DNA of 59,516 bases, the filler included, from Sphacelaria rigidula (Eukaryota), in assembly GCA_964200075.2 (NCBI GenBank). It is 7 parts of 7 records of this genome, joined end to end, with 100 filler letters (N's around TTAATTAATTAA, not from the genome) between each part and the next. Parts side by side here need not be neighbours in the genome. Positions count along the whole stretch, not along the records: positions 34,069 to 42,485 come from CAXNAA020011215.1; 6 more parts are not named here. One strand, written 5' to 3'. The notes beneath the pieces are model-generated. The model saw only the letters and a list, made by a program, of their open reading frames with translations. It did no database searches and was not told where the DNA came from. The position numbers and the translations under genes were made by a program. Positions 8,418 through 51,101 of this stretch are shown here, piece after piece (within the stretch, counting starts at the first letter, position 1; each line of letters starts with the position of its first letter).

Positions 8418-8517
8418 NNNNNNNNNNNNNNNNNNNNNNNNNNNNNNNNNNNNNNNNNNNNTTAATTAATTAANNNNNNNNNNNNNNNNNNNNNNNNNNN
8501 NNNNNNNNNNNNNNNNN
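8418..8517. other. Artificial contig spacer (44 N + TTAATTAATTAA + 44 N)
   Basis: Identical 100-nt block recurs six times; TTAATTAATTAA gives stop codons in all six frames. Confidence 0.98.
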
Positions 8518-16934: not shown

Positions 16935-17034
16935 NNNNNNNNNNNNNNNNNNNNNNNNNNNNNNNNNNNNNNNNNNNNTTAATTAATTAANNNNNNNNNN
17001 NNNNNNNNNNNNNNNNNNNNNNNNNNNNNNNNNN
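16935..17034. other. Artificial contig spacer
   Basis: Same 44N-TTAATTAATTAA-44N block. Confidence 0.98.
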
Positions 17035-25451: not shown

Positions 25452-25551
25452 NNNNNNNNNNNNNNNNNNNNNNNNNNNNNNNNNNNNNNNNNNNNTTAAT
25501 TAATTAANNNNNNNNNNNNNNNNNNNNNNNNNNNNNNNNNNNNNNNNNNNN
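25452..25551. other. Artificial contig spacer
   Basis: Same 44N-TTAATTAATTAA-44N block. Confidence 0.98.
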
Positions 25552-29400: not shown

Positions 29401-32400
29401 GGTGGGATACTGCTGCGCATTGTATAGGTGGCACAGGGATGCAAGTATCTCGGACTTGAAAAAAATTTCAAGTACAGATCCACGTGCATACGGCTAGTTA
29501 TTGTGCTCAGCAGACCCATGATGTTGTTCAATGAATAGTGACGTCTTGACAGCAATGAACAGCACAAATGATACTCCTGAAAAATGAGGATCACTACAAC
29601 GAGCCAAGACTTCCAAAGAGTTCACCCCACCACAGCACAATACTATTTATTACATGGGGCATCGACGATTCAGATCCTTCCGTACAGCCGGGTAGAGCCT
29701 TTCTTCTTCTGACCCAGTTCATGTATGAAAAAGGGTCGTTTAAGAGGATACCGCACGTTTTTCATTGGTTGGGAGGAGGGCCAGACTCAAGAGAAACCGG
29801 ACTCCATTCCTATCCATGGGAGGGGGGAGTACGAATGAGGACGGGATAACATGCCAACAGTGGAAACTATTGATGGGAAAGCCAGCTGGGCACCCCATCA
29901 CGAGAAAAAAACAGCCAGAGCATGGCTCCTGCTGTTTTGACACTCCCTTGCGCATCCTCGTCGGATTGTTCCTCCATTCTCACATGTTTCAATCACTTGT
30001 TTTTGTGAGAGTAATTTCCGAGGTGATGGGAACGGGCATCAGCCCTCAACCAATCGGAAGGATAATAAACGAACACAGAAACCACCACAATCATTCTCGT
30101 CCTTACCTTGTGTTCTCATTCTTTTTTCTCGCTAAGGCCGTGGCTTAGGTCGTGTCTTAGCACACTATTTTTCGATCGAGAAAGTGCGGCGGAAAAGCAG
30201 AAATCCCGATCTGATAGGTCATGATTTCAACCATCTTCAAAATTGACGACGATGGTTGAAACGGCGACCTATCAGATCGGGATTTCTGTTTTCCACCGCA
30301 CAATTTCGATCGAAAACTAATATGCTAAGACAGGCCCTTAGCACATCATTTTTCGATCGAGAAAGTGCGGCGAAAAAAAAAAAGTCCTGATCTGATAGGT
30401 CGTGATTTCAACCATCTTTAAAATTAACGACGACGGTTAAAATTACGACCTATCAGATCGGGATTTCTGCTTTCCACCGGACTTTTTCGATTGAAAAATG
30501 ATGTGCTAAGAGTCTGTGTTAGGCCGTGTCTTATCGAATTGTTTTCGTGTAGAAAATGTGCGCTCGAATCGAATTCCCTCGTTTCTGATTCGCCCACGCC
30601 CTTTATTTTCTCAGATGGTTGAGAACATGGATGCCGTGGACGTATCAGGTACACGAGCAAATTCGATTTCCATCGTAAACTTTCGAGTCGAAAACAATTT
30701 GATAGGACACGGCCTCAGCACATCAGTTTTCGATCGAAATTGTGCCGATGGAAAGCAAAAATCTCGATCTTACAGGTCATGATTTGAACCATCGTCAAAA
30801 TTGATGATGGTTGAAATGACGGCCTATCAGATCGGGAGTTTTGCTTACCACCACACAATTTTGATCGAAAACTAATGTGCTAAGGCAGGCCCTAAGGCCG
30901 TGTCTTGTCAAATTGTTTTCGTGTCGAAAACGTGCGGTCGAATAAAATTTGCTCGTTTCTGATTCGTCCACGCTATATATATATATATATATGTATTCTC
31001 AGATGGTTGAGAACATGAACGCCGTGGACGTATCAGGTACGAGCAAATTCGATTCCACCGTACGTTTTCGAGCCGAGAAAAAAAAATGAGACACGGCCAA
31101 ATACACGCCACACGCCCTCAGACGGGACCCAAACCACCAAAGTTGAAGAACCAATCAACCATCAGGCCAACCGACGGACAAACCAACGAACGGACCGACC
31201 GACAGACCGACCGACCAGCCAACAACTCAGAAAATAACATGAAAGGAAATAACGGAGTATATCGAACCATGCGAGCAGGACAACAACTTCGCTTTTTGAT
31301 TTTCCACGTATTAAATTCTTGCCGTACTGACTAACACAGTACAGCAGTTACTGCACAGCACAGCACCTTGAAGTTGAAGTGAACGATAGCTCCGAAGTTG
31401 GTGGCCGCGTAGGCGATGTAGCCGATGATGCCCATGGTAGCAACAGAGCGGTTCTGTCAAACAAGGGGATGGAGCGCGCGCCCGGGGGGAGGGGGGGGGG
31501 GCGGGGGGGGAAAGAGAAAGGAATCAGGTTGCCGGAGAAAAGCCAATTTGAGAATTTCCGCAAATGCGAACACACGAGGCAAATGTGCTGTACTCGAAGC
31601 AACGAGAAACGATATACGAAATACGATATGTTTTCGATGTCAGGTGCCATCACTTCATGTTCTTTGGACGTTCATTTTCTTTACTGTTCACGCGTGGGAT
31701 ATACGAACGATGGCCCGGGATGGTGAAGATAATACGTGGTTGTGTAATGGTAGGAAACAAAGGCTACGGCCGAATCGTGCGTGTTGTTCTCGTGTCTGTA
31801 GTGGTGTGGCGTCTTCGCCCCCGAATCGGGGCTTATGGTACTACTTGTATTCTTTGCCGATCCTCCTATTCAGCGCGGAAACTTTCGATATTTGCCGCGA
31901 GACAAGATCAGAACAGTTTTGCTTCAGTTCCGTCGTCTCGTACCTCTGCTGCTTCTTGTTCTTTGTTCTTCTTTACCGCGCGTTCGACAGACCGCCCCCC
32001 TTATTCCTCGGGACGGTTCGTACTATCATTGGAGATAAACCCCCATCTCCCCCCCCGATACATGCCTGACATTCCGGTATCGCGGATCGGCTCAGCACCG
32101 CCTCACCGCGTCCTTTCTCGTCGAATGTTCCTTGGCTACTCATGTCTTCACATTTCCAATGAACGCACAACAGATTCTGCTCGAGAACAGCGAATCTGTC
32201 GGGATTTGAATCCGCAGCCCCCTGCCCTCACTGGCTATTGGTGCGCCAGGTATACCACTGGGGTGCGGCCGGAAAATACTTCTGGAGTATGAACACTGTA
32301 TAAGTACGTTTTTTATTCTCTTGGGTACATCTATCGTGTGACAAACGGCTGAATCCCAGGTGGATCAGTGAATGTGCGATGATCAATCAAATCAATTAGT

Positions 32401-32674
32401 CGATCACGAGACCTCTTGCTTCAGGTGATTACACGTGAAAATACCATACTCCACGGGGTTGCCACCTCACCTCTCTGGTGGATCCATTGTAGATGGAGGG
32501 GACGAAGTCGAAATTTTCTTTGGCGGCCTCAAAAGACACATGAGACACCACGACTGCGAACGTGAAGAGGGAAAGTAGACTCAGCAACGCGCTTAGCCCC
32601 GTCCACTTGGCGCTGCCACCACCACACACCAGGTACTGGAAGCCGACGAGCATCGACATCAGACTGAAGACCAC
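26484..32674 (-). CDS. Unknown multi-pass membrane protein, internal exons
   Basis: Three phase-0 exons with AG acceptors and GT donors, each hydrophobic: 32674-32471 (VVFSLMSMLVGFQYLVCGGGSAKWTGLSALLSLLSLFTFAVVVSHVSF..), 28925-28791 (MWRLQGGNWSTYNSGFYKTPLVFYGFLTLLAGVVHLALGAYVYDK), 26621-26484 (FDDDRLSISFAFPSVLPFLITYSEVTMAVACFQVLLGFYVMARAQM). Family not recognised; start and stop not located. Confidence 0.72.
27050..28400. repeat. GTAC/AGTACT-rich complex repeat with two oppositely oriented arms
   Basis: Iterated GGTACCCGGAGTACTGAG and GGGTATCGATTGTCGAAAA units at 27050-27710, with related units at 28080-28400; intronic. Confidence 0.55.
30136..31098. mobile_element. Cluster of five nested palindromic PIF/Harbinger (Tourist)-like MITEs of two families
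   Basis: Units of about 190-200 bp, each a hairpin with GGCCGTGTCTTA-type TIRs and TTA/TAA junctions: A1 30148-30337, A2 body 30341-30509, B1 30522-30714, A3 body 30718-30892, B2 30896-31098. Confidence 0.88.
32030..32265 (-). mobile_element. tRNA-related SINE fragment
   Basis: The minus strand reads CCCAGTGGTATACCTGGC .. GCGGATTCAAATCCCGACA (A/B-box-like) with no full cloverleaf. A similar B-box head (GGGTTCGAAATCTC) lies at about 46125-46195 (-). Confidence 0.45.
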
Positions 32675-33021
32675 CTGTATATTTTTTCGAAACATGTATC
32701 GTTGTAGAGGGCACACGTCATCTCTCGCGCGGACGTGTTTGCATACATATGTCTGTATACATGGTCAGTTAGGGGAAGGGGGCGCGAGAGAGCAGCGTTT
32801 ATACAACTTATAGAGAAGCAAAAAGAGATGTACAGCGAATGAGAGATGAACAACGACCGGTCGAACATCCATCGGTTCTTTCACGGTCACACCGGTATCT
32901 TACGCACGTCTGTCGCGAACTGCACTGTTGTGTGTACCGTGATTTGTGCTGTACTGATCGATACAGGGGGTTATTACCCTTCCTGCGTAATTTCATGTGC
33001 ATACATGTTGCGGAAAATAAT

Positions 33022-33025
<4 letters not shown>

Positions 33026-33094
<69 letters not shown>

Positions 33095-33099
33095 CAACA
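33026..33099. repeat. (TAA)n microsatellite
   Basis: About 22 TAA units followed by (CAA)n. Confidence 0.95.
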
Positions 33100-33968
33100 T
33101 GTATGGGGTGTGCTCAGCGATTACACCGTAATGTTGCCCCGTCCACGGGTATCTGGCTCAGCGCCTTCATTGCTTGTGGCATGCCTGCAACAGGGCGCAA
33201 CATGAACATGTCGATGAATGGTTTGACTTGCCAATGGAAACGCAAAATTTGGCGCGAGCCTCAATTGTACTTCATAGCTAATCCAATGAAGCGTGATGCG
33301 AATTCGGGTCAATGAACTAATTCACCAACGGGCGGGGTGCGCAGCATGAGAACGAGAGGGGGCGGGGAGGGGGGGGGGTCGTACTCATTTGTTGCTTGCC
33401 GTAGTCGTGTGACCATTGACCACGCAAGGGGGTCATCAACTCCGTCCCCTCCGAGACGGGGTACTCGTTTATCCCCCGACTAGAGGATTATGGGTAAACG
33501 AGTCACAAATTATTTCACTGTGCGTATACGGTTGTTCCGAGTAGTACCGTCGGATGGTAGTCCTGGCAAAACTCCAGGAGGTAACTTTTGGGGGAAGCGT
33601 GGAGTCGGGAGGGGAGCGGGCTGGGGGGTACGAAAATCGATACATGTCACGGATCCAATATTTCCGTTATGTCAATGAGGGCCGCAGATCGATCTCGCGT
33701 GCCATATTCGGGAACAAAACGAGGGTTTATAAACGCACGTCCACATCATATTAACCCTCCCCTGCTGTCCCCTGGCCAAAGGCCCTATTATGAGAAGCCC
33801 TGACGAGGAGGAAAACACGGAAACAGAATAGGCCGACGGCAATCATTTTTATAATGGAAGCCCGAAGAAGAATGTTCTCCCTGGAGAAATTGGGTAAGAC
33901 TTGTCCAATCATACCATGCAACGGATGAAGTGTGTCCAATTATATCCATCGACAATAATTAGCAAAAC

Positions 33969-34068
33969 NNNNNNNNNNNNNNNNNNNNNNNNNNNNNNNN
34001 NNNNNNNNNNNNTTAATTAATTAANNNNNNNNNNNNNNNNNNNNNNNNNNNNNNNNNNNNNNNNNNNN
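33969..34068. other. Artificial contig spacer
   Basis: Same 44N-TTAATTAATTAA-44N block. Confidence 0.98.
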
Positions 34069-36717
34069 CCCCCCCCAATCTTACAGGATAGTGAATGGGT
34101 ATGAGAGCAGTGAAACCAGGGTGAATTTAAAATACAGTCTCTTGGGGGAAGGTGTTGGTGATGCCACGGTCAAAGTTTGTGCGAGAAAATAACGCTTGCA
34201 ATCGTCGTTGATAACAGCAACGGCAGTTCGAACGCGCCTGCTTCCGACATGTAACGCTCACTCATACTGTTTGATATCGCTTTTACCCAGATACGAGGGC
34301 ACCGTGAGTGTGTTGGGTCGTCTGACGCACCTATGAGCTCATTTTTTCGTGGAATCGAAACCCCCTCCCTATTGTAGCATGACTCTCTCGTGTTATCTAT
34401 TTTCTTCATTTATCTTTCCCTCTCCCCTCCCATGTTTCCTCTCGCGATTGTGTTCGTCTGTTTTTCATTTGGTACATTGGTTCATGTTGTGAATACGGCT
34501 ATATCCGTAGCGAATCAGTTAATGTGCTCCAATCAATCAATCATTTTGTCAATCGTTTTGTCAATCATTTTATCAATCAACTCATCAATCGATCACTCCC
34601 ACCAGTCAGTTTGAGGCTATCAAGGGTGCCTGAGGTGTTCCCCGTCTCTCACCCATCCCGCCGCACCCGTGACACCGTTGGCCCCTGCATGCCCGCCCTT
34701 AGGTTTTCATCGCCCGCAACTCGTGAATGGGAGAGCCACGCAGCTGCTTCATCTCAGTCTCTACACGCGCCATCCCTTCGTTCATATACTTCAGCATGAA
34801 TGGTTTCATTGATTGGTCCATTGATGTAACGCCGTCGTTAGGACGCACGAGTGAATCAAGTCCTAGGTCCGACCAACCAAATCGGCATTTCCTTCGTTTG
34901 TGTGAGTATTATCCTTCGAGAGTGATGCAGCAAGTCCGGAGGTGTGTAGTATATTTTAGCGTGTTTCGTCATCATTCACGACCAATCATAGGGTGGCTGT
35001 AAAAGTGAGACATGAGTCCGCTTACATTGTCATCTAGATGCCGCACCGGCTATTCCGAGTAGGTATCATCATGTCAACGGATCTGGCCAGATAGGGTCCC
35101 GCAAATCTATACTACGGGTCCGCCAGGTACTCATAGATCTTGCGAGCCACATCCGAATTTCTACATTCTGCAGATGTGCAGTGACGTGCCGTTTTTTGTT
35201 GAAGTGCAAGTTTATGCAAGGAACAAGGAACTTGAGCATTTGCTTCATAGCTAGTGGGACCAGAATCGCCAGGTAATGTGCAAGTGGAGAAAATACCTGC
35301 AGTGAAAGAAATATGACTTTTTTTGGCCTTTGAAAAAGCCTTGAACTGTACGTGCTTCATCTCATCAATCGTCTGCCGGATACCGTCAACAGATGGCCCT
35401 CTCTGATGTTGATGCAGACCTCCGTCTCTTCTATTGAATAATCGAAGCGACTCTACCCGTCGGCCACCTCGTCACATTTTCTCGGCACCTCGGAAGCCAG
35501 TCATTGGTCGGGGAAGGGGGGACAAAAAACAAGGAAAAGTGATAACTGTGTACAATGCTCACCTCTGTACGTTCTCGGTTCCTGTGGCACACATTTGGTT
35601 GGAGGGCCGCAAGTTGTGTCGGAAGTAGGTCCCGGTAACAAAGTCGAAAAGAAACATAATAATCGTCAATAAAAAGAAGGGGTTTACTTAAATACATGGA
35701 CGTCCATGTACTTGGCATGATCCTATTTCAAACTTGAAGTTGAAGACCTTCAATTTCGCCGCATTTTTCTCGGCGGAAGGCGGAAGAAAACGGCTTCCAA
35801 AAAGATATTTCGAAAACGCAAATCGGAAGTTAGTTGAGTTTGACGTAGGGCCGTAAGAATCAACGTAAGAGCATCGGGGCGGGCTGTTGAGCAGATTGGC
35901 CTCTCGGCCTTGATTACACGACCAATGAGAAGTGCGGGTCTTGGCCCGGTTCGTCTGCGACGATGGGATATGGCTGTGAGAGCCTAAACCCGTCCCAAGG
36001 CTTGCCGAGCCCGTAGTAAGCAATTCGAACACTGGTGCCATCTACTGCGGTGGTGCACCTTGCAGCTACGCACTCTTTTCTTGCCGTTAGGCACAAGTAT
36101 CGGATTAAGTACGAGTATGTCGCACGGAATGTATGGTGGTACGAGCAGGGCTCCTCGGCTGTTTCCTTTTTCGTCGCATTTCCAATCCCTCCCGTTCTTC
36201 GGGACGCGTGTGTTACGGTGCAAATACATTGTCCCACATCGTGCGTACACGTTGTCCCATATCGTGGACACTGGTAAGAAGGGTTTTTTGTTTTTGCTCC
36301 CGGAGAAGGAGAGCAAAACGACCATGATCGGACCCACTGCTTGCTTAAGCTGCCGTTCGGCCGCATGGGTCAAGTACCAACTGTAATATATATATATATA
36401 TATGTTAGCATCACTCGAAAACCAAAAAACAAATCTGACAAGGTGACGGTGCCCGTACAAACATAACTACCCGGAGATTGAAAGTGGAGGATGCGACTGG
36501 GAATGATAAGCGGTAAATTACGGAATGGACAGGCTCAGTTCCGAGATGCCCCTCCATGAGGCCCGATATGCTACCTGCAGTTTCTTGCCCCTGGAGCCCT
36601 TTATATCCTTGAGAATGATATCGGTGTGTAGCTGTAAGCGCACGCAAGTGTTACAGGCGAAGAAAAGCACACACAGAACGACGATTTGGTCAAGTTGAAG
36701 CGAATGACCGAACCCAC

Positions 36718-36940
36718 TGTAATGCGTGAGAGGGCGGCGTGCTTGGAAGACCGCATCAGAATTTGATCATCCCTGTGGTTAGGGTTAGGGTTAGGGTTAG
36801 GGTTGGTGTTGGGGTTGGGGTTGTGGTCAGGGGCGTGGTACCTCCAGGGACTGACCCGATTGGTTTGGAAAAACGTCGATCCTGAGGTGTTTTGAACTAC
36901 GGCGCGGTCCTCCAAGCACGCGGTCCTCTCACGCATTACA
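36718..36940. mobile_element. TGT..ACA MITE with internal telomeric (TTAGGG)n and 5-bp TSD
   Basis: TIR of about 37 bp: TGTAATGCGTGAGAGGGCGGCGTGCTTGGAAGACCGC / GCGGTCCTCCAAGCACGCGGTCCTCTCACGCATTACA. TSD CCCAC at 36713-36717 and 36941-36945. Confidence 0.88.
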
Positions 36941-37477
36941 CCCACTCTCGATCGACGCTCTACTCTCAAAGTAACGACAACATTGTCGTAAGTGTGGTAT
37001 GGTGTAAAGAGGCGATACGAGTAGAAACCCCGTTACTCTGGAGGGTGTTTCCGACCGTGAAACACAGCTGTGGTGCGATCAGTACGAACAAATTCAAATA
37101 AACGAACCCGTACATTACTTCACACGAGTGATGCTTCGGTAGGGGTGCACAAATATTTTCTGAGGTTGGAATTATCAGGAACCCTCTATCTCATGCAAAA
37201 ACACAGCCTATCTATGAACAAATATGAAAGTACGCCAGGACTACTACTCCAATGTGCTGGGGATATCCCGAATGAATTTGCAAACGGGGTTGCCCTGACC
37301 CATATTTTTGTGCATGTAGAATCATTAGGAGCCCCCGAACTAGACATAATTTCGCGAAAAAAATGCACCCCTACCGTAGCATTGCTCATACGTTGCTTCT
37401 CAAATACGATTGTGACAGGCTCGATCGACCGTAAATACCGCAGGGTCAAAAACTCTACTGAAAGATGGTAAACCCCC

Positions 37478-37688
37478 TGTGATGCATGAGAGGGCCGCGT
37501 GCTTAGAGGACCGCACCATAGTTCAAAATACCTCGGGATCGACGTTTTTCAACACCAATCGGGCCAGTCCCTGCAGGGACCATTCCCCTGACCCTAACCC
37601 CAACACTAACTGTAACCTCAACCCTAACCATCGGGGTGTTGAAATTCCGGTGCGGTCCTCTAAGCACGCGGTCATCTCACCCATTACA
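37478..37688. mobile_element. Second, inverted copy of the telomere-repeat MITE
   Basis: TGTGATGCATGAGAGGGCCGCGTGCTTAGAGGACCGCA .. degenerate CCCTAA units .. CATCTCACCCATTACA; flanks CCCCC / TCCCC. Confidence 0.85.
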
Positions 37689-39351
37689 TCCCCTATCATT
37701 GGCCAGCCCGTAAGTCACTGACTACTGAGTGAAGATGGATGTATTTTATTGAAATGTGCGGCGGATACCAGTATGTTGAGATCCTCAACGTCATGCGCGG
37801 TGGTATTCGGTACAGCCTAAGAAACTCGCCAATCGCGAAGAAATTACACAACGATTGGTTGAGGGAGCCACCACCATAATATATTACTTAGTACGTAATT
37901 CATCTACACTGGACACACAGTATCGAATTTCGAGTTGCGGCACGTTTCTTCATGCTGCTCTCCCACCTCCTGTGCACCTCCGCGCGGCAACATACTAGAA
38001 CGGACCGCGTCGCAAATCGTTGAGCCATACACGTACTGAAGTGCTGAAGTCTATCACGCGCTTCCGTCAGTGCGTCCGAATGCGTCATGACGTCGACTTG
38101 ACTCTCCCTCCCTTCAACCATTCGCACATCAATTACCGAATGACCACTTGTGGATTCAGATCTGCGCCGTAACCCTCGCAAACATCCGCCTCGCCGCAGC
38201 TGGATCCTGTGCTGAAGAACCCATCGAACGCCCCCATGATACCAACGTGCGTCAATCCTGCCACGATCTCACACCGACAAGCTGCTGGAGCCCTCCCGCG
38301 CGTGCGCTTTCTTCCAGTCAAGGATTACCGAAGAAAGGGTTATTCAGTCACGGGTTACCCGGTCAAGGTTTCAACACTGAAGGTTTACTCACTAAAGGTT
38401 TACTCCCTGAAGGGTTATTCGCGGAAGGGTTTGGAATAGAGACGTGGGATGGCGGCGAGTCGGGGGATAGCAGGAGCGCACCGGGCTCAACGGGTGAAGA
38501 TGCAGGATCCGAGTCTGGGTACGGCTGGTCATCGGAGTCGTCCTGTGATTCCGAGGGGGGCGGGGTCGGGGACGAGGTGGTCCGACATTTGGCACGGGTT
38601 ACACTCGCGTGATGGAGTGGGAGCGACGCTGAAGTGAGATGCTGCGTAAACATGAGGTGCTGTCATGAGGATCATGTGCTGCGCAGAGGTATAATTTATT
38701 TGCTGTATTTGTGTCTTGATGTCGGTTTCGGATTTGTAGCAATTATGTATCCAACTCAATTACTCCCCAAATGTTGGCTCGGTGTCAGCAGACGATTTTC
38801 CGTAGATGTAGGTCGGGATTATCTACGCATCGGTAGCGCTCAAGCCTGAAAAATAAGGAGTATCTGTCATGGCTCGATACTCTAGCTGGGAATGGTGCCA
38901 GTTCAGTGGGCACCAGGCTAGCGGGCTCATACACAATCATTAGTATCGAAGCCATTGAGCTCGATTTACCATGTGGGGAGTCAACCCACACACCAATGAC
39001 CAGGCGTCATGCCCACGGTTCGCGCCGGAGGCAAGACCTATATGTTGCGTGCAATGCGGGCTTACATTTGTGAAGACCAAAGACTCCTCTGAGATAGCCG
39101 TCCGTGATGGTGTTGATGCTTCTTGTATTATTGGCAACCGGCTGGTAGCTGCTATTCGCGCGTTGAGATAAGTTCCCAAAAGACTGTGCCCGAGTAGGGG
39201 GGCACTGTCGAAATCAATCAGACTCAGAATGACCCATGACCTGTCGGGCTAGACAACGCAAGAGTACGACACATGGAATCTACTCGACTGGACCGTAACC
39301 GATAAATCCGGAACATCCCCCCAGCCTTTTAAGAAGGCTAAGCGAAAGAAA

Positions 39352-39956
39352 TGTGGAAAACGAAGCCTGTGCATCAACACCTGAAATAAGGAAACGAGAA
39401 AATTCTGCCACTAATGTTGAAGGGGAAAACTCGGTATCTAATAGATAGGTAAATCCCGTTAGACGGGGAAAACCCTATCCGTTAGGAAAGGAAAAAAATC
39501 TCTAGCGCCCTTTCCAATCGAGAGAAACCGCATATAAGGGCGATCGCTGTCGTTTTCCCGGGATCTCTGTTAGACTGGAGAACGATTAGCTAATTAGCTT
39601 CATGGCGCGTCGACACCCGAGATCAGTTACACTGAATTCCAGGGTAGTGCGGGGCTTTAACCACATCCAACTTACGTTGGATTTGCTAAAAACAACTTTT
39701 CCACGAACTCATCAGTAGATACAGGAGTGCAGCTTTTGGGAAGTGCTTCCCTGTAACTACTGATGTTTATGCAACGAAGAATAGAGCCCATGCGCCTTGG
39801 CTCATAAATGTATTTGCATGTTACAATATGGGAACCAGACAAGGCCAAGGAACGACAAAAAAAGAAGAAGAAACAAAAACAGGCACACTCGCATTTCACA
39901 CTGAAGAGTACGGTACCAACAATCCTTCTTGCTTATTTTACAACCCCCTTTCCTGT
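39352..39956 (-). mobile_element. Putative polypurine tract and 3' LTR of the Gypsy element
   Basis: On the minus strand AGGAAAGGGGG (PPT, about 39954-39944) is followed after one base by TGTAAAAT at 39942. A candidate distal end ..TTTTCCACA lies at 39352, close to where an unrelated repeat starts. No second LTR is available, so the distal boundary is uncertain. Confidence 0.5.
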
Positions 39957-40056
39957 GAAATGATATCCTGTACCATTTCATATACCGACTAGTCCTACAC
40001 ATTCCCACTCCAGTTCAAAGTAGGGGTCCTTTTTCCCGCGTTAAGCGGTATAGTTC

Positions 40057-42485
40057 CTAGCGGGATAGCTCCTCCCAGTCTCCGTCTTCGTATCGTACTC
40101 GCCAAAAGCGACACCCGTAGTCATACACCTGACCCTTGACCTTGAGACCTCGAAAGTCTTTCCAGAAAGTAACACCTATTGGGAAACGCTTCAAGGCGTC
40201 ACTACGCGACAGGGGAGCGGGGTGCTTCTTGGAGTGCGGGGGCGGATTGGGTGCAACTGCGGGGTTGTATAGGTGCCAAAGTGCGTGGAAAGCGTCTAGT
40301 TCCAAAGAGGAAAAGCTGTTTCGGAGCTGACTCTCTGGCAGCCAGGCTGACACCTTCCCTTCCAACGACCTGGCCTTGTATTCTCATTATTTCGTGCCGG
40401 TCATGGAGTAGATCTCTCGGCGGTCCACCAAAGTGACGAACTCGTGAGTTTGGGGAGGAGCGGTGTTGGATTTGCGATCTGAACCCCATACGTATTGAGC
40501 GAACTCGTCGGCTATCGAGTGCCTGAGATGCGGTGGGCGAACATGGAAGGGTTTCACGTCGGAGACTGCTACTCTACGTGTACGACGTTTGCGCCCCTGC
40601 ATGACTACCTCTACACTGAGGCCGGTCATCAGCACTTCCTTCACTCTCCAGGGCCCCGTGTACCTGTCGTGTTGCAGTTTCCTACCCTTACCGTCCCGAT
40701 GTATCGTGCTGTGTGATTCGCGTACCATGACCAGACCACCTTCTCTCGCCGCCACTCCGGCAGAAGGTCTCAAGATTGAGGCGTTCATCTTCGCACAAGT
40801 CGATTCTTTCGCGGCGTGTCTTGTGTCAACAGCTAGACGTACCTCCTTGAGGTTTTGTCTACGTTGCTCCACGAAGGCATCCAGACCGTTACTTGATTCC
40901 TTCTGGTTCAGGGGAATGAGCGAATCTAGAGACGTGCGGGGTTCACGACCGAACAAAAGCTCAAACGGATACATGTCTGAGGGTAGGGAAACGTCTGGCA
41001 AGGTACGCTTGATCCAGAGCGCTGGGGAGACGTACTCGTCCCATCTCTGCGGCCACGACCTACACAGCTCTGCCAGCATGTCTAGTAGCCATCCCCCCAG
41101 CCTCTCGACTTCTCCTTGGCCTCTGGGGTGATCAGAGGGCCCAAAAGCAATGTCTGCTTTCAGCCACCTGCACAGGTGTGTCACCACCTCCGCTCTAAAT
41201 TCCTTTCCTCCATCACTGCGGATTTTGCGGGGGACGCCGAATGTCAAGTAGAGTTCAGCAAGGATGCGAGCTACACTTTCAGCCTGCTTTGTTTGAAGTG
41301 GGAAGCCGAAGGGAAACTTGGAGGCTCGGTCTACGATCAAAAGAATGTACTTGTTGTTCGTAAGCAATGCAGTGTCTATGCTCAGCAGGTCCATCTCAAA
41401 CTCTTTCCATGGTTATACGGCTCGTCCCGGTGTCATTGCGATCTTACAGCTATTGGACCTCTTCCTTCTTCTACAGCTGCAAGATAACACGTACAGTCTG
41501 GTATCCTTTACAATTGACGGCCAGAAAAAGCAATCTCGCATCAAAGACAGCGTGGTTCCTACTCCGATATGGCCATGTAGGGAGTGTACCAACGCCAAGA
41601 TGTCAGGTACCATGACCGAGGGGATGGCTAGCAACGGTTTTTAGTGTCCTTCGTTAGCCACGCCACACTTTGATCGTCTAGACTGTATTGGTGTGCAACG
41701 TCGTCACTCACCCTAATCTTGACATCATTTTCCGTACTGGGTTCCTCTGGTACCTCGTTGGCACTCGCCACAATCTCGCAGTCTGCATCCCTCGTATTGG
41801 GCACCTCCTTTCCCCCCTGTACCTCGTCTGTACTCACCGTACTCTCGCAGTCTGCATCGCTCGTATTGGGTGCCCTGCACCTCGTCTGCACTCATCGTAC
41901 TCTTGCCATCCTTGCCATCTTCGCCATTCGTACAGTGTTCCTTCTCTGCCTTTAGTATCGATCTCACCTGCCCCAGGAACGGGTCCTCCTCCTGTGCGCG
42001 TTTCAGCGCGGATGCGTTTGTCAACATCTGGATCGCCCTCTTGAATGGCGACGTGTCTACTGCAGTTTTCACCGTAGACGAGGGTTTGTCTTCCCCGGCG
42101 ATGAGCACCTCTTCTACTTCCGGCCTTTCACTGACCGGGGCAGGGGTGATGGGAGTAGGCTCCCTCGTTGGGGCTTCGATAGGTGTGATACCTACCGACG
42201 GCTGAAGGTTCATCTGAACATCTGTGGGCACGGCATGTATGCGAGCAGCGCCTGGGAACTGCAAGCGTACGTACGGACGGCGAATTTTGGGGGAACGACG
42301 GGGTGATTCGTCCTCTATCGACGCGTAGTCAGCGAACGGGAGCGATCGCGAGGTGCTTACGTATCTCGTCTCATCTATAACCTTCCTTCTCCCGTGAAAT
42401 CAAAAGGTGACAATTCCGTCAACCATTTTCCGTCTAATTGTGGACCGCAAGACCTCGCGGTTTCCGAGGGTGTGCTGGCGGTAAA
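40057..42485 (-). pseudogene. Decayed Ty3/Gypsy pol 3' half: linker, integrase (HHCC, DDE, GPY/F), chromodomain-like and Tudor-like C-terminal modules
   Basis: AQEEDPFLGQVR; zinc-binding region VHSLHGH..FFWP..LSCSC (41413-41634); rve core MDLL..LLIVDRASKF..IRSDGGKEF..GQGEVERL and YTGPWRV (40387-41394); terminal WRVRYEDGDWEEL (40057-40365). In-frame stops at 41413-41415 and 40384-40389; frameshifts near 41640 and 41870. Truncated by the contig end. Confidence 0.93.
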
Positions 42486-42585
42486 NNNNNNNNNNNNNNN
42501 NNNNNNNNNNNNNNNNNNNNNNNNNNNNNTTAATTAATTAANNNNNNNNNNNNNNNNNNNNNNNNNNNNNNNNNNNNNNNNNNNN
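42486..42585. other. Artificial contig spacer
   Basis: Same 44N-TTAATTAATTAA-44N block. Confidence 0.98.
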
Positions 42586-44224
42586 AACCGACCGAGGCAA
42601 AAAAAAAAGAAGACCCCCCCCCCCCCCCCCCCCCCCCCTAGAACATAAGGTTTTTTTCGGTACCATACCGCTACCTAAAGTGCAGTACAGTGGGGGGGGG
42701 GGGGCACAGCGCGGTCGAATTTACTCAACACGAGTCCGATCTGCTATACTGTTATCAATTCATTATATTACATGGTACTAACTATACTAAAATAGTGAAG
42801 AATTCCAACATGGTGCATTCCTCCAAAGTGTGGGGCTCAACCACAGTGCAGGCAAAAAGCACTCGACACAAGTTCGACCCTTTATACTAATATCAAGTAA
42901 TATGTATTTCTACCAGTATAGTGCGGTCACACCCAACTGGCGACCCAACGCAATATGCCGGGAATCTCAACGTACATCGTGTAGCACCCCCAAATAATAC
43001 CCGTGGATGTCAACACTACGCCCCCGTGATATTGTATATACCTTGACATCGTAATCGGCTTCCGTGTCGAAATCAATCGGCCATTTCGCTCCGTCCATTG
43101 CGTTTGCAGGGAACAGCTGCAAATACCCGTACGGTGCATGGTCAGCGATGAGGGAAATAAGGACGGGACGTGGAATGCGGGATATGGGAGGGGGAGGGGC
43201 GTACTCATTTGTTGCCTTCATCATTTGGTCATTGACTACGCATCCCTTTCAAAGACGGAGCACCGTCTCGAAAGGGATGCACGGTCAATGGATGTGGGAC
43301 GGGGGGGAAGCGATTTCTTGCATAGAACGGTCAAGGTTTGCCCCGTGGCCCAGAGAACTTCAGTACATGGACCATGGTGTACCTCGTACTCTCTGGTCTT
43401 GCTTGACGGGTGGAGTATGACATGATATCGGTGCACACACTAGTAGATGTGGCCGAAAGCATGAAAACTTCCGAGCAGCTTCTTGTGAGCAGACATTGCG
43501 ATTTTGTTTGATGACCACAATCTGATCTTTGGATAACGACTGACAAAGCGCAATCTAATTCAAGGCGGGAGGGAGGAGGGGGGGGGGAGAGTGAATTGGG
43601 TCCAGAAGAACGAGTGACACAGACATGGGTGTAAACGGAGGAGACGAGAAAAAATATGCATATTTTGTGGCTTAATTGAAAAAGGGATCCGCGTTTTGGT
43701 TCTGAAACTGACGCTGCGAAATTCCGGGAGAGAGTGCAAAATACCATTTCTTGGTGTCTGTCCACCCCTATTCCGGATGTGATTGATTTATGTTCTGTGT
43801 TCATGTCTATATGTACGTTTGTACGTATACGTGCATATCATATTTGAATGGGAATTGATCACCATCATAAGACTGCGGTAAAAGCAATATTTCGAGCAAT
43901 ATTTTGTTCTTTGTTACTCGGACTTCGCTTGGAAATCCTGCAGCGATGAAAATATGGAGGACAATATCTCAGAACGACCGAAATGGACCGAATACGCTCA
44001 TCTGTGGGGGCCTGGGTTGGTATATAATCAATTTGTTCTCGCGCATTAACTGATCTCCTTCGAATTTGAGCCGCGATCGCAATGTACAGGCTGGGCGGCC
44101 CAAGACGCAAATAGGCATATTGACACGCGATTATGCTGCTTAATTTGATGTCGTATTCAACAATTTTTTGACACGATCTACAGGATTTATGTGCGAAGGC
44201 TGCATGTTCCACGATCATTCAAGA

Positions 44225-44790
44225 AAAAAATTCCGTGAGTTATTTTCGATTTAGTTCCGAAAAAACTGTTCTAAAATGTTCCGTCGCCAATAACTCACGA
44301 CAAAAAAAAAACAGGGGAGGAAAAACGGGGTCTTCGCACGTACGTCCCGTACATCGTGTCAATTTTCATAGTAAACGACTCAAAATTGAGCAGCATAATC
44401 GCGTTTTCGTATCGAAAACCGGTTCCTATAGGGAGATGGACCAGCCACGACGCGAACAGGAAACGATGAACCGCCGTTACGCTGTCCAATTTCAAGTTTT
44501 TTGCCATGATTTTTTTCAAATTTGACACAGTGCGCATGAGGTATGTTCGAAGACCGTCCCCCCCCCCCCTCCCTGACTTTTTTTGTTTTTCAATGAGTTG
44601 TCGATGATTTTGTACTGGAAAAATGTTCCGAAATATTGATCACCGATAACCCACGAGAGGAACAACAAGCGAAGGGATAACAGTAGGGGCTTTACACATA
44701 CCTCATGTACATCGTGTCGAAATTTCATGGTGAAAGACTCAGACGTGAGCAGCGCAACCGCGTTTTTCTGTCGAAAACCGGTTGACTTGC
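44225..44790. repeat. Degenerate foldback/direct repeat cluster
   Basis: 44240-44425 is repeated directly at 44600-44785 and in inverted form at about 44480-44605. Confidence 0.55.
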
Positions 44791-44861
44791 TTTTGGAGTA
44801 CAACAACCTGAGCAGCCGAAACGTTGACGTTTTCCACAAGCTTTCTTCGCCCACTGCTCAC

Positions 44862-44947
44862 CGGTCCACACACTACTACCAGACACCTTGGCGCGCTGGG
44901 AGCCTCGTCTGCGTCCCATCTCAGACACTGCGCGCCTACAGTACGAC
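44862..44947 (-). CDS. Possible coding exon (RTVGAQCLRWDADEAPSAPRCLVVVCGP)
   Basis: tgcag acceptor and CCG|gtgagc donor around a GC-rich open frame. VVCGP resembles NAD-binding FNR-family motifs, but the match is weak. Confidence 0.25.
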
Positions 44948-45663
44948 CTGCATTGTTGTACAACCACAACTTGTGCGGCACCACCAAAATTGCGGCCGCG
45001 GCACAACCGACCCCGAAAAATTGATTTCAGCCGGATTTGTTTTCCCCTAATACCGCCGCAAATGTCACCCTTCACCCGCTACCCTTCGCAGCTGACTACA
45101 GTTTGGTATATCGCTTGATGGGAAGCTGTCGGCTCGCAGTGCTACGTGGATTGTGCAGATTACTACGATATGCCATGGTAGGCACAACTCGGGATGCATC
45201 ATCAGTTAGAACGGACTGAACGAAAGTGGGCTACTTGGGCGGCCCAGCCTGTACAAGTGCCCAGCGCCACCGAGCCCTGGTGGTCCAAAGTAAATTGGTA
45301 CAACTGGCACGGTTAGGGCGGGAGAATGTTTCTTCAATTAGATATCCGAACTCCTCGATGGTGGAAAACAAAACGGAATGAATGAACGTCTGTGCGCATG
45401 GCCAAGCTCAGCTATACGCGTTGGTTCCCCAAAAAGCCAGTCTCGTAAACAATCCGGGATCACAGGAGGCCAGGACAAAAAAAGAATAATAATACCTTGC
45501 CTCTCACAGATACGATACACCTCCGCTGCTCATGCAGTACGTTGACTTCACACATCAACAGACCGTGCGAAAAACAACTTGTGGATACATACAGTGAAAC
45601 CATATTTTCTCTTTGTCGCGCATTTTACGATGCCATGAAAGCAGTCAGATATGGCGATCGTCA

Positions 45664-45728
45664 TTCGTTCCGTTCCGTTCCGTTCCGTTCCGTTCCGTTT
45701 CGTTCCGGGCAAGTGTGTGTGTGTGTGT

Positions 45729-45760
<32 letters not shown>
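45664..45760. repeat. (TTCCG)n plus (TG)n microsatellites
   Basis: Seen directly. Confidence 0.95.
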
Positions 45761-46889
45761 TTGTGTTTTGGAAGATTCCCAATTCATGACTCTGCAACTG
45801 GATTATGATTTATCATCTTACTTTCGTGACTGATCCGGTACAAAACCATCAGCGGTGGGAAAACAATACAATGATGGATACATTTTTTGTTTTGCTTTGT
45901 CCTAGCATTAACATAACGGTATCACTCCTTCTCGTCGGGGATGAGTCCGCATTCCCACGGGATCAATCGACCCATGGTGTCCAACGGTACATGTACATGT
46001 GCCCAACATTTTGTGGTCAACGATCGGACCAATCAGCACTTATTTTCACCAATACTGGCCTCGACATGCTTTCAATGGAAGGGAAAGACAAAAAGGGAAA
46101 TAAAGTGCTGATCAGGAAAAAACGTCGCTGTCGAGATTTCGAACCCGTACCCTTCCCTGCCGTAGCTGAAATATTGCTCCACCGTTTTTATCAAGAACAT
46201 CGGTGCGCGGCGATGCGAAAGTACCCAAGGCACTCATTATTACTAGGCAAACGAAAAAGCACCGTTTGCTGAAGGAGCCTCGAGATAAAAAAGGGGCAAA
46301 AGAGAAAAAACGAGATAGAGACAGAGAGAAGTGACAAAAAAACGACACGGGCAAAGAACGATCCTGAGAAAATCCCGACAGGCCTCCCACCTCGGCTCCA
46401 TGCAAGATATCGTATGAAAAAGCAAGGCGTAGAGAGCAGATTGTGAGCCAGCTACCTCGAAGAAGGTATGGATACGGGAGAACCTCTTGACTGCGAGGTC
46501 TGAGAGCAGGAGAGCGATACAAAACACTTTTGTAGATGGCAACACGAAACATATACGGGGAATATAACACGGGGAAAAAAGGAAAAGAGAAAGGAAAAAG
46601 AAAACGCAGGAAGAGGAAAATAATAGTATAATAATAATAAGAAGAAGAAGAACGAAGTGTAAGAAAAAGATATGAAGAAGAAAATAAAATAAACCAAGAA
46701 AACGAAACGAAACGAAGAACATGAACAAGAAATGTAACAGAAAAGAGGGAAAAAAAATAAAAATGCTAAAAAGAAATAAGCAGCAGAAGCAAAATAGTTC
46801 GACAGGAGATCGAATACTGTGTGATGATCAAACGAAAGAAGGAAAAAAAACAAAAGAACAGAACAAACAAGAGGCAAGTGTAGTATTAC

Positions 46890-47019
46890 CTGGATCATGG
46901 TCGGCAAGCGAACTTTGTCCATGGCGACTGTAGCTCCGAGCACCGAGCTCTTGCCTGCTTCTGGGGTGGCCGTTATCAACAAGCTAGCACCGGTCGTTTG
47001 ATCTTCGCTATCCATAAAC
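46890..47019 (-). CDS. Probable isolated coding exon of an unknown gene
   Basis: Strong acceptor (T-run..gctgtgcacag) and donor (CAG|gtaata); open frame FMDSEDQTTGASLLITATPEAGKSSVLGATVAMDKVRLPTMIQ. Confidence 0.45.
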
Positions 47020-47513
47020 CTGTGCACAGCAAAAAAAAAACCCGCAAACGATCGAGTGAAAAAACGCTCGTGCTCGGAGATATTTCAATCTTTTTGTTTG
47101 TGGCACTTATCATCCAGCATCTCCGACATTCCCACCACTCGTGGGCACAGACAGGAAATATCGGAGATGCGGGATGACTATCAACAATATCTGTTTAGGA
47201 GCACAACATAACCCTCAGACTGCGAACCCCCCTCAGATGGACTCAGATGGACGATGCCACATGTGGGATTCAGAACAGCTATTTTTCATTACACAGAACG
47301 CCGTTTTTCATGAACATGTAGATGTTGGCATCTACGTCGCAAAGAGTTCCAGAGAGCCCTTGATCGGTTTTTACCCTGCAGTCAAGTGCGTGCAGCGTCA
47401 TTGTGTACGTTGTATGCCTTCGCTGGAAAAACATCGGCAAGGAACAGTCAGCCTGCCTGCCATCGCTGTCCACTGAACATGGTTTACTTCACGCTGCTGA
47501 TGTCTTTTACTTA

Positions 47514-47812
47514 AACAACATTATCGTGAGATTGAGAGTAGAGCGCTGATTGAGAATGGATTTGATCATTCGCTCTAACTCAACGATTTTTCATCTCGTG
47601 TGTGCTTTCCTTGGCCTCCATGACTGGCGGGTGCTTCCAGCTACATGTCGATATCCTACTCAGGGATATCAAGGGCGTCAGTGCTAAGCTACCACAGAAA
47701 GCATATTGGGCCTCGTGAGGGGGCATTTCGGAACTGAAATGAAGCATTCACTAATTGGCCGCTTTTCACTCTCAATCGCATCCTCTACTCTCGATCTCAC
47801 GAAAACATTGTT
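47514..47812. mobile_element. MITE, same family as 287-572
   Basis: TIR AACAACATTATCGTGAGATTGAGAGTAGAG / CTCTACTCTCGATCTCACGAAAACATTGTT; interior colinear with 287-572. Confidence 0.78.
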
Positions 47813-48449
47813 CTTGGTGTTCTGCAACAATGGTACAGTATGAAGCTACCGTATGCTGGCAACACAAGAGGGGTCAGGCAGGCGGCGTAGACCACGAGCA
47901 AAATACAAAACAAGTTATTTGTGCCCACGCTGTCCATGGTTAAAAGCTCATGACCAAAATGGGAAATATGGTTAGACTGCCAGGTAGTCCATCTGGGATG
48001 TGGCATATTAACTTTTCTGACCAATCACAGCTCTTATAACCGTCACTTAGCCCTTCCTGGGCCTCGTTCCTGGCTGGGAATTTTCCGTGAAAAACTTTCA
48101 GATACACGAGGTTGACTTCGTGAATTTTTCACCTGATGTGCGAACAGAGCCCCACCCCCCTGTCGACCCCCCCACCCGGCGCCCCCTGGAAACCCCGGGA
48201 TGTCCCCGGACTGTAAGCCGGTCAAGCTGGTCCGAAGGGACGCTCGCAGTCTAAGGATTGACAGAGGTTGGATATCCTTTTATTTTTTATTTCGCCTCTA
48301 GTTCTTATTCAGTTTATTCCGTTTGGTGTATATTTTTACTTTGTCTTCTCCATTTCTGGACTTTCCTTTCAGCGAATATTTCCGTTCATACGTTCATCCC
48401 ATCTCGAGACCACAGTTGGATACCTCGGGGATCAGTTCATCCGCGACAA

Positions 48450-48702
48450 TCATTCAATCAAATCAAACCGAACCAAACCAAACAAACCAAATCATACCAG
48501 ATCATACCGGATAGAACCAGATCATAACAGATAGAACCAGATCAAACCAAATGGAATGAAATGAAACCAAACCAAACCAAACCAAACCATATCACATCAC
48601 ATCACATCACATCACATCACATCACATCACATCATATCATATCACATCATATCATATGACATGAAATGAACCGAACCGAAATCAAATCAAATCAAATCAA
48701 TC
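48450..48702 (+). repeat. Compound pentanucleotide microsatellite ((AACCA)n, (ATCAC)n, (AAATC)n), probably an expanded retroelement tail
   Basis: Directly follows GAGACCACAGTTGGATACCTCGGGGATCAGTTCATCCGCGACAATC, the shared non-LTR 3' motif. Confidence 0.85.
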
Positions 48703-49189
48703 TACATCTTCCAATTCGCGTCTCGAGACACCTCGGAAGAGCACAGCGCACAAGCTGGTACTACTGTATTTGTTTAATCCCAAGGGAACCACGTTACGTT
48801 CATGGAGGCATTTCTGCGTACACCTCACGTACTCCTCATCTTACTTTTCATTCTTCTTCCCTATCGTTTGTTCTGAGAGGAAGGTTTTTGGGGCTCGACC
48901 TTCAATTTCGTGCGTTAAATACCCGAGTTTGGAATCCCCCGTGTACGATGCTTCAAAAAAACCAAACGGGCCCACTCGTACTCAGCCGGAAAGCGACCCG
49001 CCACAGCCTTTCTGGGAGTTGTTGCTCGTAGAACCTCAGCAAAACACCATTTTCTCAAGGGAAAATACGGCGTTTCTCGTGTGTCGAGCGAATGTTTTGC
49101 TCAGGATGGTATGTGTGCTGTTCTTTGTTGGTGTTGGGGAAAGAAAAACAAGTAAACATTTGTTTCGTGAGTGACGCCGCGACAGCCCC

Positions 49190-49418
49190 CTCCTGCACCC
49201 AAAAATTTGACTCAACGGTTTTCGAGGAAAAGGGAGTGCTGAACCCCTCCCGCGATAAAAAATTGAAGGCAAGCACCGCAAAAGGAAGGTGGGGTTCTAA
49301 AAGCAAACAAGAACGAAAAACCTCCTGTGTTGACCTTACTCCCGTGTGACCCCGGCTGGTGCGCCCACATATACCGAAAGGTCTTCACCGGCGTCCAGAA
49401 TAGATGAGACGACAGCAC
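49190..49418 (+). mobile_element. Copy of the same SINE family
   Basis: Aligns by eye to 2940-3022 plus 3491-3680. Confidence 0.75.
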
Positions 49419-50305
49419 ATCCCCAGAAAGTGGCTGGTTCGAGGAGGCAAAATCTACATGCGAATCAAAATGACAAAAGCCGAGCACATCCAGCAGCTGG
49501 GAACTCTCACGCTTGGGATCGCATGCGCCGATGTCGCCCATATGAGGCGCCTCATGCATTCTGAAACCAGTCATCATGCGCTGTATGTTCATTTTCTCCG
49601 TGACAGTTTTGGGGCTTGTTTGGGGAAAGGTTTTCGCGACATCACTTTTTAATTTACGCGAATCAATCGGGGACTTATTTACCCCCAAAAGCCATGCAGG
49701 ATCGAAACGGCGACGGAGAGGAAGAGTTGACACTATTTATAATCTGTGTCGGAAAGTTCTTCTTCGTTTACAACGCGGTAGAGCATTCGACGAAACCTTT
49801 GGATGAAATGAGAGTAGCAGCAAGCAGTTCCGAAAAAAAGGGATATATATATTTATTTATTTTTGGCTGAGCGCTCCTGTCGTCCTGAGGTGGGTGGGTT
49901 GGCGTCCGCTAACGCCGTTGCCATAATCTCATGATTGAAAAGAGTTTAATCTTCGAACACTAACCCTTACCCCAACCCAAGGCAGACTGAGAATCCTCAA
50001 CCAAGGGGGTACGGACGATGCCCTAGGCGATGGTGCGCTGACAGCACCCAAACTGGCGCTGCAGACGCCGATTTAAGCCAAACCGCATACTATGCACGCC
50101 GGCCAAGTACTAGGGACTATCAGGTCCTACGAGATCCAATGAAGTGGAGGGGGGGAGGGGGAAAAAAAGATGCAACAAATTGTGCGAGTATTGCATATCG
50201 CAGGAGATATGTTGTCGAGAATTGCCAAGTTTAGCACTCCCACAATTTACATGCTGATATTGCACTGCGTTGTCTCTTACTTAACGGAACAAAAAGGGGA
50301 AAGCG

Positions 50306-51001: not shown

Positions 51002-51101
51002 NNNNNNNNNNNNNNNNNNNNNNNNNNNNNNNNNNNNNNNNNNNNTTAATTAATTAANNNNNNNNNNNNNNNNNNNNNNNNNNNNNNNNNNNNNNNNNNN
51101 N
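51002..51101. other. Artificial contig spacer
   Basis: Same 44N-TTAATTAATTAA-44N block. Confidence 0.98.

Follow-up and report, generated by a model that had tools for sequence, protein, structure and literature searches.

The stretch of Sphacelaria rigidula DNA analysed here, hereafter the window (59,516 nt including filler, seven parts of assembly GCA_964200075.2 joined end to end), carries a Ty3/Gypsy integrase on its minus strand, identified by Pfam matches to the H2C2 zinc-binding and rve catalytic domains that both exceed the Pfam cut-offs. The explanation we favour, and consider likely to be correct, is that the locus (40030-42482, minus strand) is a dead remnant, ~2.45 kb long, of a brown-algal Gypsy element whose integrase ends in a Tudor domain, and that in active copies the modules of the integrase tail serve, as we propose, as a chromatin tether. 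The features recognised at the locus are as follows.

41878-42482, minus strand: decayed linker between RNase H and integrase of a Gypsy Pol (tblastn with full-length relatives)
41416-41640, minus strand: integrase H2C2 zinc-binding domain (PF17921, E 5.4e-12, 46.1 bits)
41413-41415, minus strand: in-frame TAA between the zinc-binding and catalytic domains (translation)
41137-41379, minus strand: integrase catalytic core, rve (PF00665, E 1.3e-8, 35.4 bits)
40525-41136, minus strand: integrase C-terminal region (translation; 60-67% identity to family integrases)
40261-40440, minus strand: module 1, tail residues 29-88, a predicted chromodomain-like strand-strand-strand-helix fold (AlphaFold2, Foldseek, Atlas)
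40384-40389, minus strand: adjacent in-frame TAA and TGA inside module 1 (translation, alignment)
40213-40260, minus strand: variable Pro-rich linker, tail residues 89-104 (low pLDDT, low identity)
40060-40212, minus strand: module 2, tail residues 105-155, a putative PTM/DIR17-like Tudor barrel with a short helix before it (PF21743)
40057-40059, minus strand: TAG ending the frame, inside the last conserved Tudor stretch (tblastn, end of Pfam match)
40030-40056, minus strand: remnant of the family's C-terminal end, past the TAG (tblastn)

Translation of the minus strand at 40054-41640 gave exactly the integrase-tail strings, with their two adjacent stops, that had been quoted in an earlier note on this DNA. 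The frame reads, in order, FVTLVDRREIYSMTGTK, the two stops, EYKARSLEGKVSAWLPESQL, a Pro-rich NPAVAPNPPPHSKKHPAP, and then IGVTFWKDFRGLKVKGQVYDYGCRFWRVRYEDGDWEELSR with its stop; the Tudor end has the form IGVTFWKDF...YEDGDWEELSR, followed by the TAG. The rve match corresponds to residues 12-92 of the open reading frame (ORF) at 40390-41412, and a GPW variant of the GPY/F motif lies at ~40648-40656, upstream of the tail. The tail itself comprises 155 residues, encoded at 40060-40524, and holds two conserved modules split by the adjacent TAA and TGA. The linker upstream of the integrase matched no Pfam family; by tblastn, residues 766-975 of the full-length relative P0019 and 814-993 of P0023 align with it at 36-47% identity. 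Between RNase H and integrase, at 41750-41870, a 52-nt unit is duplicated in tandem (69-nt spacing, 85% identity), giving a repeated peptide in the 41725-42399 frame.

Judged by its sequence, the copy in the window is a dead 3' fragment of the element with no function of its own. The integrase and tail frame contains four in-frame stops, of all three kinds, and the second of those in module 1 replaces a tryptophan that is invariant in 24 of 24 relatives; more stops occur in the linker upstream, where frame changes are needed to follow the relatives. An alternative genetic code reading through the stops was considered and rejected, since all three kinds of stop are present and the relatives have ordinary residues at these positions. 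In the earlier note, the quoted string ended at the last stop of the frame. This TAG is probably premature too, as tblastn alignments of the relatives cross it and end at 40030-40042, at the last residues of P0018, P0021, and P0006, and the match to PF21743 (PTM_DIR17_Tudor) extends to profile position 40 of 48 in the window vs 46-48 in the relatives. When seven relatives were compared with the whole window by tblastn, homology was confined to ~42482 down to 40030-40042, and no further piece of the element was detected. The upper limit lies just past the position of RNase H in full-length elements, and since a run of N (42486-42585) adjoins it, the exact point of truncation is hidden. Pfam scans and tblastn revealed no reverse transcriptase (RT), RNase H, or protease elsewhere in the window, and Pfam scans of the three minus-strand frames of 41641-47000 and 36000-40056, in which X stood for each stop, returned nothing at E<=0.1; therefore, the missing RT and RNase H were not simply displaced. 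No direct-repeat pair that could represent long terminal repeats (LTRs) flanks the fragment within 30000-50000, a point that tells against a retrotransposon origin; however, this is expected since the copy is truncated at its 5' end, and a solo 3' LTR would go unrecognised. Considering that RT and RNase H are lacking, that stops interrupt the integrase and both modules, and that the linker changes frame, the window copy itself cannot act as a tether. The GC content over 40001-42000, which covers the fragment, was 0.535 vs 0.47-0.50 in the flanks (0.45-0.54 across the window), and this higher value is consistent with a foreign or transposon composition; that of Ectocarpus is 53.5% (PMC11541908). 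Megablast of the fragment against phage records gave no match.

If the locus were a domesticated host gene, derived from an integrase and equipped with chromatin-reader domains, rather than transposon debris, the absence of adjoining RT and RNase H would be explained, and the many database relatives that are integrase-only gene models would fit. However, such a gene is difficult to reconcile with four in-frame stops, one of them on an invariant tryptophan, with the further stops and frame changes in the linker, or with homology that starts abruptly just past the RNase H position. In addition, the full-length relatives are complete Pol polyproteins that occur in many near-identical copies (e.g., a cluster of 57 members). 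We find this explanation scarcely credible and rejected it owing to the stops and the abrupt start of homology.

The 155-residue tail, used as a query, matched 16 of 124 candidate proteins of 290-924 aa (E 2e-47 to 9e-26, 40-59% identity), 14 of them across 100% of its length and two across 91-95%, and 8 of 99 candidates of 925-2640 aa, each across 100%; these 16 mid-length and eight long proteins constitute the set of 24 relatives. An exhaustive phmmer search of 1.84 billion representatives returned 216 matches at E<=1e-3, 73 at E<=1e-10, and six at E<=1e-30, mostly short fragments. Since there are 216 such matches and the Tudor part exceeds the Pfam threshold on short pieces, the tail is not a product of chance. 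Named members of the family come from Ectocarpus sp. CCAP 1310/34, Cladosiphon okamuranus, and Nemacystus decipiens, and one of them, P0204 (Ectocarpus CAB1110846.1, 1881 aa), combines RT, RNase H, and integrase with a PF21743 match at its C-terminus. The same organisation was seen in all six full-length relatives scanned, with RVT_1, RNase H, H2C2, and rve followed by PF21743 as the C-terminal-most match. The window integrase was at best 67% identical to a database protein, and the integrase search separated a tight family (57-67% identity) from a divergent subfamily (41-53%), after which identity dropped to 24-31%. Among 26 newly returned proteins, a profile of the tail found the complete tail in six, four of which belong to the divergent subfamily (P0226, P0227, P0229, and P0230); one other protein breaks off after 17 residues of the tail, two family members stop short of the tail, and the profile found nothing in the 17 distant Gypsy relatives with 24-31% integrase identity. 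Therefore, the two-module tail is coextensive with the integrase clade, as it is present in the tight family and the divergent subfamily and absent from the distant Gypsy relatives.

Alignment of the 24 relatives supports a two-module tail, as the earlier note had proposed: the modules are discrete and conserved, and the Pro-rich linker between them varies. Mean pairwise identity was 0.51 in module 1 and 0.59 in module 2 vs 0.20 in the spacer before module 1 and 0.19 in the linker. Both modules are present in 24 of 24 relatives, with P0010 and P0016 ending inside the Tudor module, and intact relatives keep both modules with no stop after the GPY/F motif, in agreement with the architecture originally suggested. 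An AlphaFold2 model of the whole tail, built from a 25-row alignment, had a mean pLDDT of 75.2 and a pTM of 0.49. In this model, the first module was predicted as two strands, short bridges, and a long helix (pLDDT blocks 88-90), the linker was predicted to be disordered (pLDDT <50 at residues 93-100), and the second module was predicted to form a small antiparallel SH3-like barrel with strands at 119-124, 127-137, 140-145, and 150-154 (block pLDDT 71-79).

The assignment of module 2 to the PTM/DIR17-type Tudor domains, first made from a sequence pattern, is supported by Pfam. PF21743, whose gathering threshold is 27.2 bits, matched the last 38 residues of the frame with 28.7 bits (E 1.2e-6) when a 108-aa piece was scanned and with 27.6 bits in the 155-aa tail, and it matched 23 of 40 tails at E<=1. 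However, the score fell below the cut-off, to 24.0 bits, in the 528-aa read-through with X at the stops, and every score in the six full-length relatives was under it as well (14.3-26.0 bits, E 7.7e-6 to 0.036), which speaks against the assignment. Our literature search for a ligand of PF21743 found none, and yielded a classification mention and a domain listing. The same family model also describes cellular proteins, whereas in the window family the domain is a single copy that ends Pol. Three non-transposon proteins (P0128, P0132, and P0156) contain 3-6 PF21743 repeats at E 1e-38 to 2e-48 and give matches to the window Tudor at E 1.6e-8 to 3.3e-7. They may be related cellular proteins or the origin of a captured Tudor domain, and P0156 has additional weak Pan_kinase and Bro-N matches. 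A further protein, P0120 (974 aa), has a Copia-type RVT_2 match, and its residues 422-476 are 59% identical to the window Tudor module. This protein may represent a nested insertion or a chimeric gene model, or else a second transposon class that carries this Tudor.

Module 1 was modelled separately with AlphaFold2 (window 40261-40449, 40-row alignment), giving a pLDDT of 92.9 and a pTM of 0.75. The prediction has strands at residues 4-10 and 24-28, bridges at 33 and 37, and a helix at 48-61, i.e., a three-stranded sheet packed against a C-terminal helix. Among the Foldseek matches listed from the PDB, 23 of 46 rows were chromo or chromo-shadow domains, as were 14 of the 14 rows with TMq>=0.50; the latter include CDYL2, CDY1, Rhino, MPP8, Oxpecker, cpSRP43, and the Swi6 shadow domain (rmsd 2.7-3.9 A). 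The nearest of the folds listed had TM-scores of 0.50-0.62, and the best non-chromo row scored 0.41. In the ESM Atlas, module 1 of the intact relative P0006 lay nearest to Chromo clusters (0.85-0.89, a grade of score that serves as a lead only), and the ten best clusters with a family all belonged to the family or clan of the top Chromo cluster. The aromatic residues W47 and W61 are conserved in 24 of 24 relatives and Y49 in 18 of 24, position 49 being conserved as Y or F.

Several results weigh against a chromodomain. Pfam Chromo (PF00385) matched none of the 40 tails at E<=1 and none of the six full-length relatives at E<=0.1, and had no match in the 528-residue read-through of the window even at E<=10. 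A profile of the 40 tails, searched against PDB sequences, retrieved a NUDIX hydrolase (E 0.33) and nothing else, neither a chromo nor a Tudor chain. No Foldseek match of module 1 in the PDB reached E<=1e-3, and the chromodomain matches, at E 0.25-2.2, were no better than the matches in BFVD, which were weak and to phage proteins only (E 0.14-1.0, TM <=0.47). Since the E-values from PDB and BFVD are alike, they carry no weight here, and the TM-scores carry some. The best match of module 1 by E-value was a chromo-shadow domain, and chromo-shadow domains are dimerisation modules, not methyl-lysine readers. Finally, the position that we take to be the first of the canonical aromatic cage, equated with that of HP1 and not placed by structural alignment, is a variable position in the window family. 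Taken together, the chromodomain-like character of module 1 is partly supported, by predicted fold and language-model features and not by a sequence model: the earlier suggestion of a chromodomain-like module stands on the former and falls short in Pfam Chromo (0 of 40 tails) and in the non-significant Foldseek E-values. For the aromatic cage the picture is mixed: W47, W61, and Y49 would fit its conservation, and the putative first position varies.

Module 1 may then be no histone reader but a chromo-shadow-like domain or a purely structural extension of the integrase C-terminal domain, acting in dimerisation, protein docking, or nucleic-acid binding, in which case only the Tudor domain, if anything, would read chromatin. 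The best Foldseek match of module 1 by both E-value and probability, the Swi6 chromo-shadow domain (1e0b_A, E 0.25, prob 0.90), agrees with this, as do the presence of the Chp2 chromo-shadow domain among its PDB matches, the failure of Pfam Chromo to match any of 40 tails, the variable first cage position, and the published description of the lineage, which names the Tudor domain only in the portions consulted (PMC12477816). However, true chromodomains gave higher TM-scores (CDY1 0.59, MPP8 0.61, Rhino 0.58, and CDYL2 0.55-0.56) than chromo-shadow domains (0.49-0.50), the ten best Atlas clusters with a family share that of the top Chromo cluster or its clan, and W47 and W61 are invariant with Y/F49 conserved. 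We regard a non-reading module 1 as a genuine possibility, though one that is on balance doubtful.

Instead of reading independently, the two modules might make up a single composite reader, a tandem Tudor or SAWADEE-like double barrel with one shared ligand. When the two-module model was searched against the PDB, the top Foldseek rows were the multi-Tudor protein SETDB1 (E 2.9e-3 to 1.6e-2, prob 0.85-0.98, 120-203 aligned columns) and the SAWADEE tandem modules of SHH1/SHH2 (E 0.016-0.15). However, no row reached E<=1e-3, which also weighs on the assignment of module 2, and the best, at 2.9e-3, had a TM-score of ~0.24. Since the TM-score is ~0.24 and the rmsd 12-16 A, the kinds of domain match and their arrangement does not; with a whole-tail pTM of 0.49, these values point to no shared inter-domain geometry. 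In addition, the linker of 16-20 residues is unconserved (identity 0.19) and predicted to be disordered, and module 1 is predicted as three strands and a C-terminal helix with no five-strand barrel. A composite reader is therefore less likely given this disordered, unconserved linker in the models, and we consider it distinctly improbable.

The earlier note knew of no description of this architecture and suggested that the lineage may have added a Tudor-type reader. The architecture is not undescribed, and a chromovirus with an added Tudor domain is not a fitting frame, judging by the passages we used of a recent study of Ectocarpus (PMC12477816, Genome Biol 2025;26:320). According to these, Ectocarpus has four lineages of Gypsy elements, each equipped with chromatin-reader domains; putative chromodomains occur in three of them, which are stated to be unrelated to chromoviruses or Chronos, and a separate one, Gypsy-10_Ec32, has an integrase ending in a Tudor domain and a homologue in Tribonema minus (PMC12477816). 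The text describes this Tudor lineage with the Tudor domain only, and in it the chromo-like module goes unmentioned; the figure and supplements of the article may show more (PMC12477816). Since only one Tudor-bearing lineage is reported there, we infer that the window family is the Gypsy-10_Ec32 lineage, a placement made from its description and, indirectly, through the named Ectocarpus sp. CCAP 1310/34 proteins of the window family. Each is a Ty3/Gypsy Pol protein of brown algae in which a Tudor domain sits C-terminal to the integrase (cf. P0204). Unlike Gypsy-10_Ec32 as described in those passages, the window family has a chromo-like module before the Tudor domain, and the window copy is a decayed fragment whose integrase is at most 67% identical to any database protein, and which may represent another brown alga or an old subfamily. 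In the literature searched, as far as the sources were available, no description of an integrase with chromo and Tudor domains together was found, PMC12477816 being the only relevant report. Thus, the Tudor-bearing lineage was already published in 2025, and only the chromo-like module ahead of the Tudor domain may be new.

The window family can also be compared with chromoviruses and other chromodomain Gypsy elements (MAGGY, Tf1, CRM, Chronos, and ECR-1). In each, a small Royal-family or SH3-fold module follows the GPY/F region, and it is present in cis as a presumed chromatin tether (PMC11541908; bioRxiv 10.1101/2021.11.30.470311). The centromeric element ECR-1 has a canonical chromodomain (PMC11541908), and the transposon fusions listed in the portion consulted of the second source are mostly with Chromo and PHD (bioRxiv 10.1101/2021.11.30.470311). 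Unlike in these elements, module 1 of the window family is missed by Pfam Chromo, its three-aromatic cage is not demonstrably intact, and a second reader, the Tudor domain, follows it. HIV integrase is tethered through the PWWP domain of the host protein LEDGF/p75. There, as proposed here, a Royal-family reader joins integrase to marked chromatin; the reader is a separate host protein in HIV, whereas it is built into the integrase in the window family. Integration guided by a chromodomain is said to trace to Gao et al. in 2008. It is cited in both PMC12477816 and PMC11541908.

By analogy with the chromodomains of chromoviruses, both modules of active copies would tether the intasome to chromatin in cis. 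Their ligand could be a modified histone tail or some other chromatin protein, and such binding would bias where new copies integrate; by this analogy, we infer that either module may bind chromatin and steer integration. Targeting through H3K79me2 or H4K20me3, the marks named in the earlier note, would be speculative. A more specific version is a bipartite reader, in which a divergent chromodomain and a PTM/DIR17-type Tudor domain, on either side of a flexible linker, would recognise separate chromatin features, and integration would follow a combination of marks. This version is speculative and, in our estimate, rather unlikely to hold in full. If true, it would represent the first integrase with two readers encoded in cis, the chromo-like module having gone unremarked in the published description as consulted, and steering by combined marks would matter in a lineage that is reported to be without H3K9 and H3K27 methylation and 5mC (PMC12477816).

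Elsewhere in the window, Pfam scans of ten long ORFs gave a low-complexity GLTT repeat and no other family. At 30156-31040, direct repeats of 45-175 nt cluster at spacings of 181, 374-377, and 388 nt (79-96% identity) and resemble a short array of tandem or satellite-like repeats. Two 55-nt copies at 36895-36949 and 37643-37697, 748 nt apart and 84% identical, are probably copies of a small repeat element, and both adjoin simple-repeat tracts that translate as N-P dipeptide runs (36,7xx and 37,6xx). Paired 44-nt runs of N recur every ~8517 nt and are neither assembly gaps nor features; the N runs are located at 8418-8517, 16935-17034, 25452-25551, 33969-34068, 42486-42585, and 51002-51101.

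Integrases with fused readers offer the clearest examples of transposons that specify for themselves where to land. In brown algae, the customary heterochromatin marks are reported to be missing, and a Tudor domain, perhaps accompanied by a chromo-like module, suggests that targeting follows a different code, an idea that is already in print for Ectocarpus (PMC12477816). To this the window adds two points: it independently confirms that a large family, its divergent subfamily included, has conserved the tail, and it suggests that this tail holds two modules rather than one.

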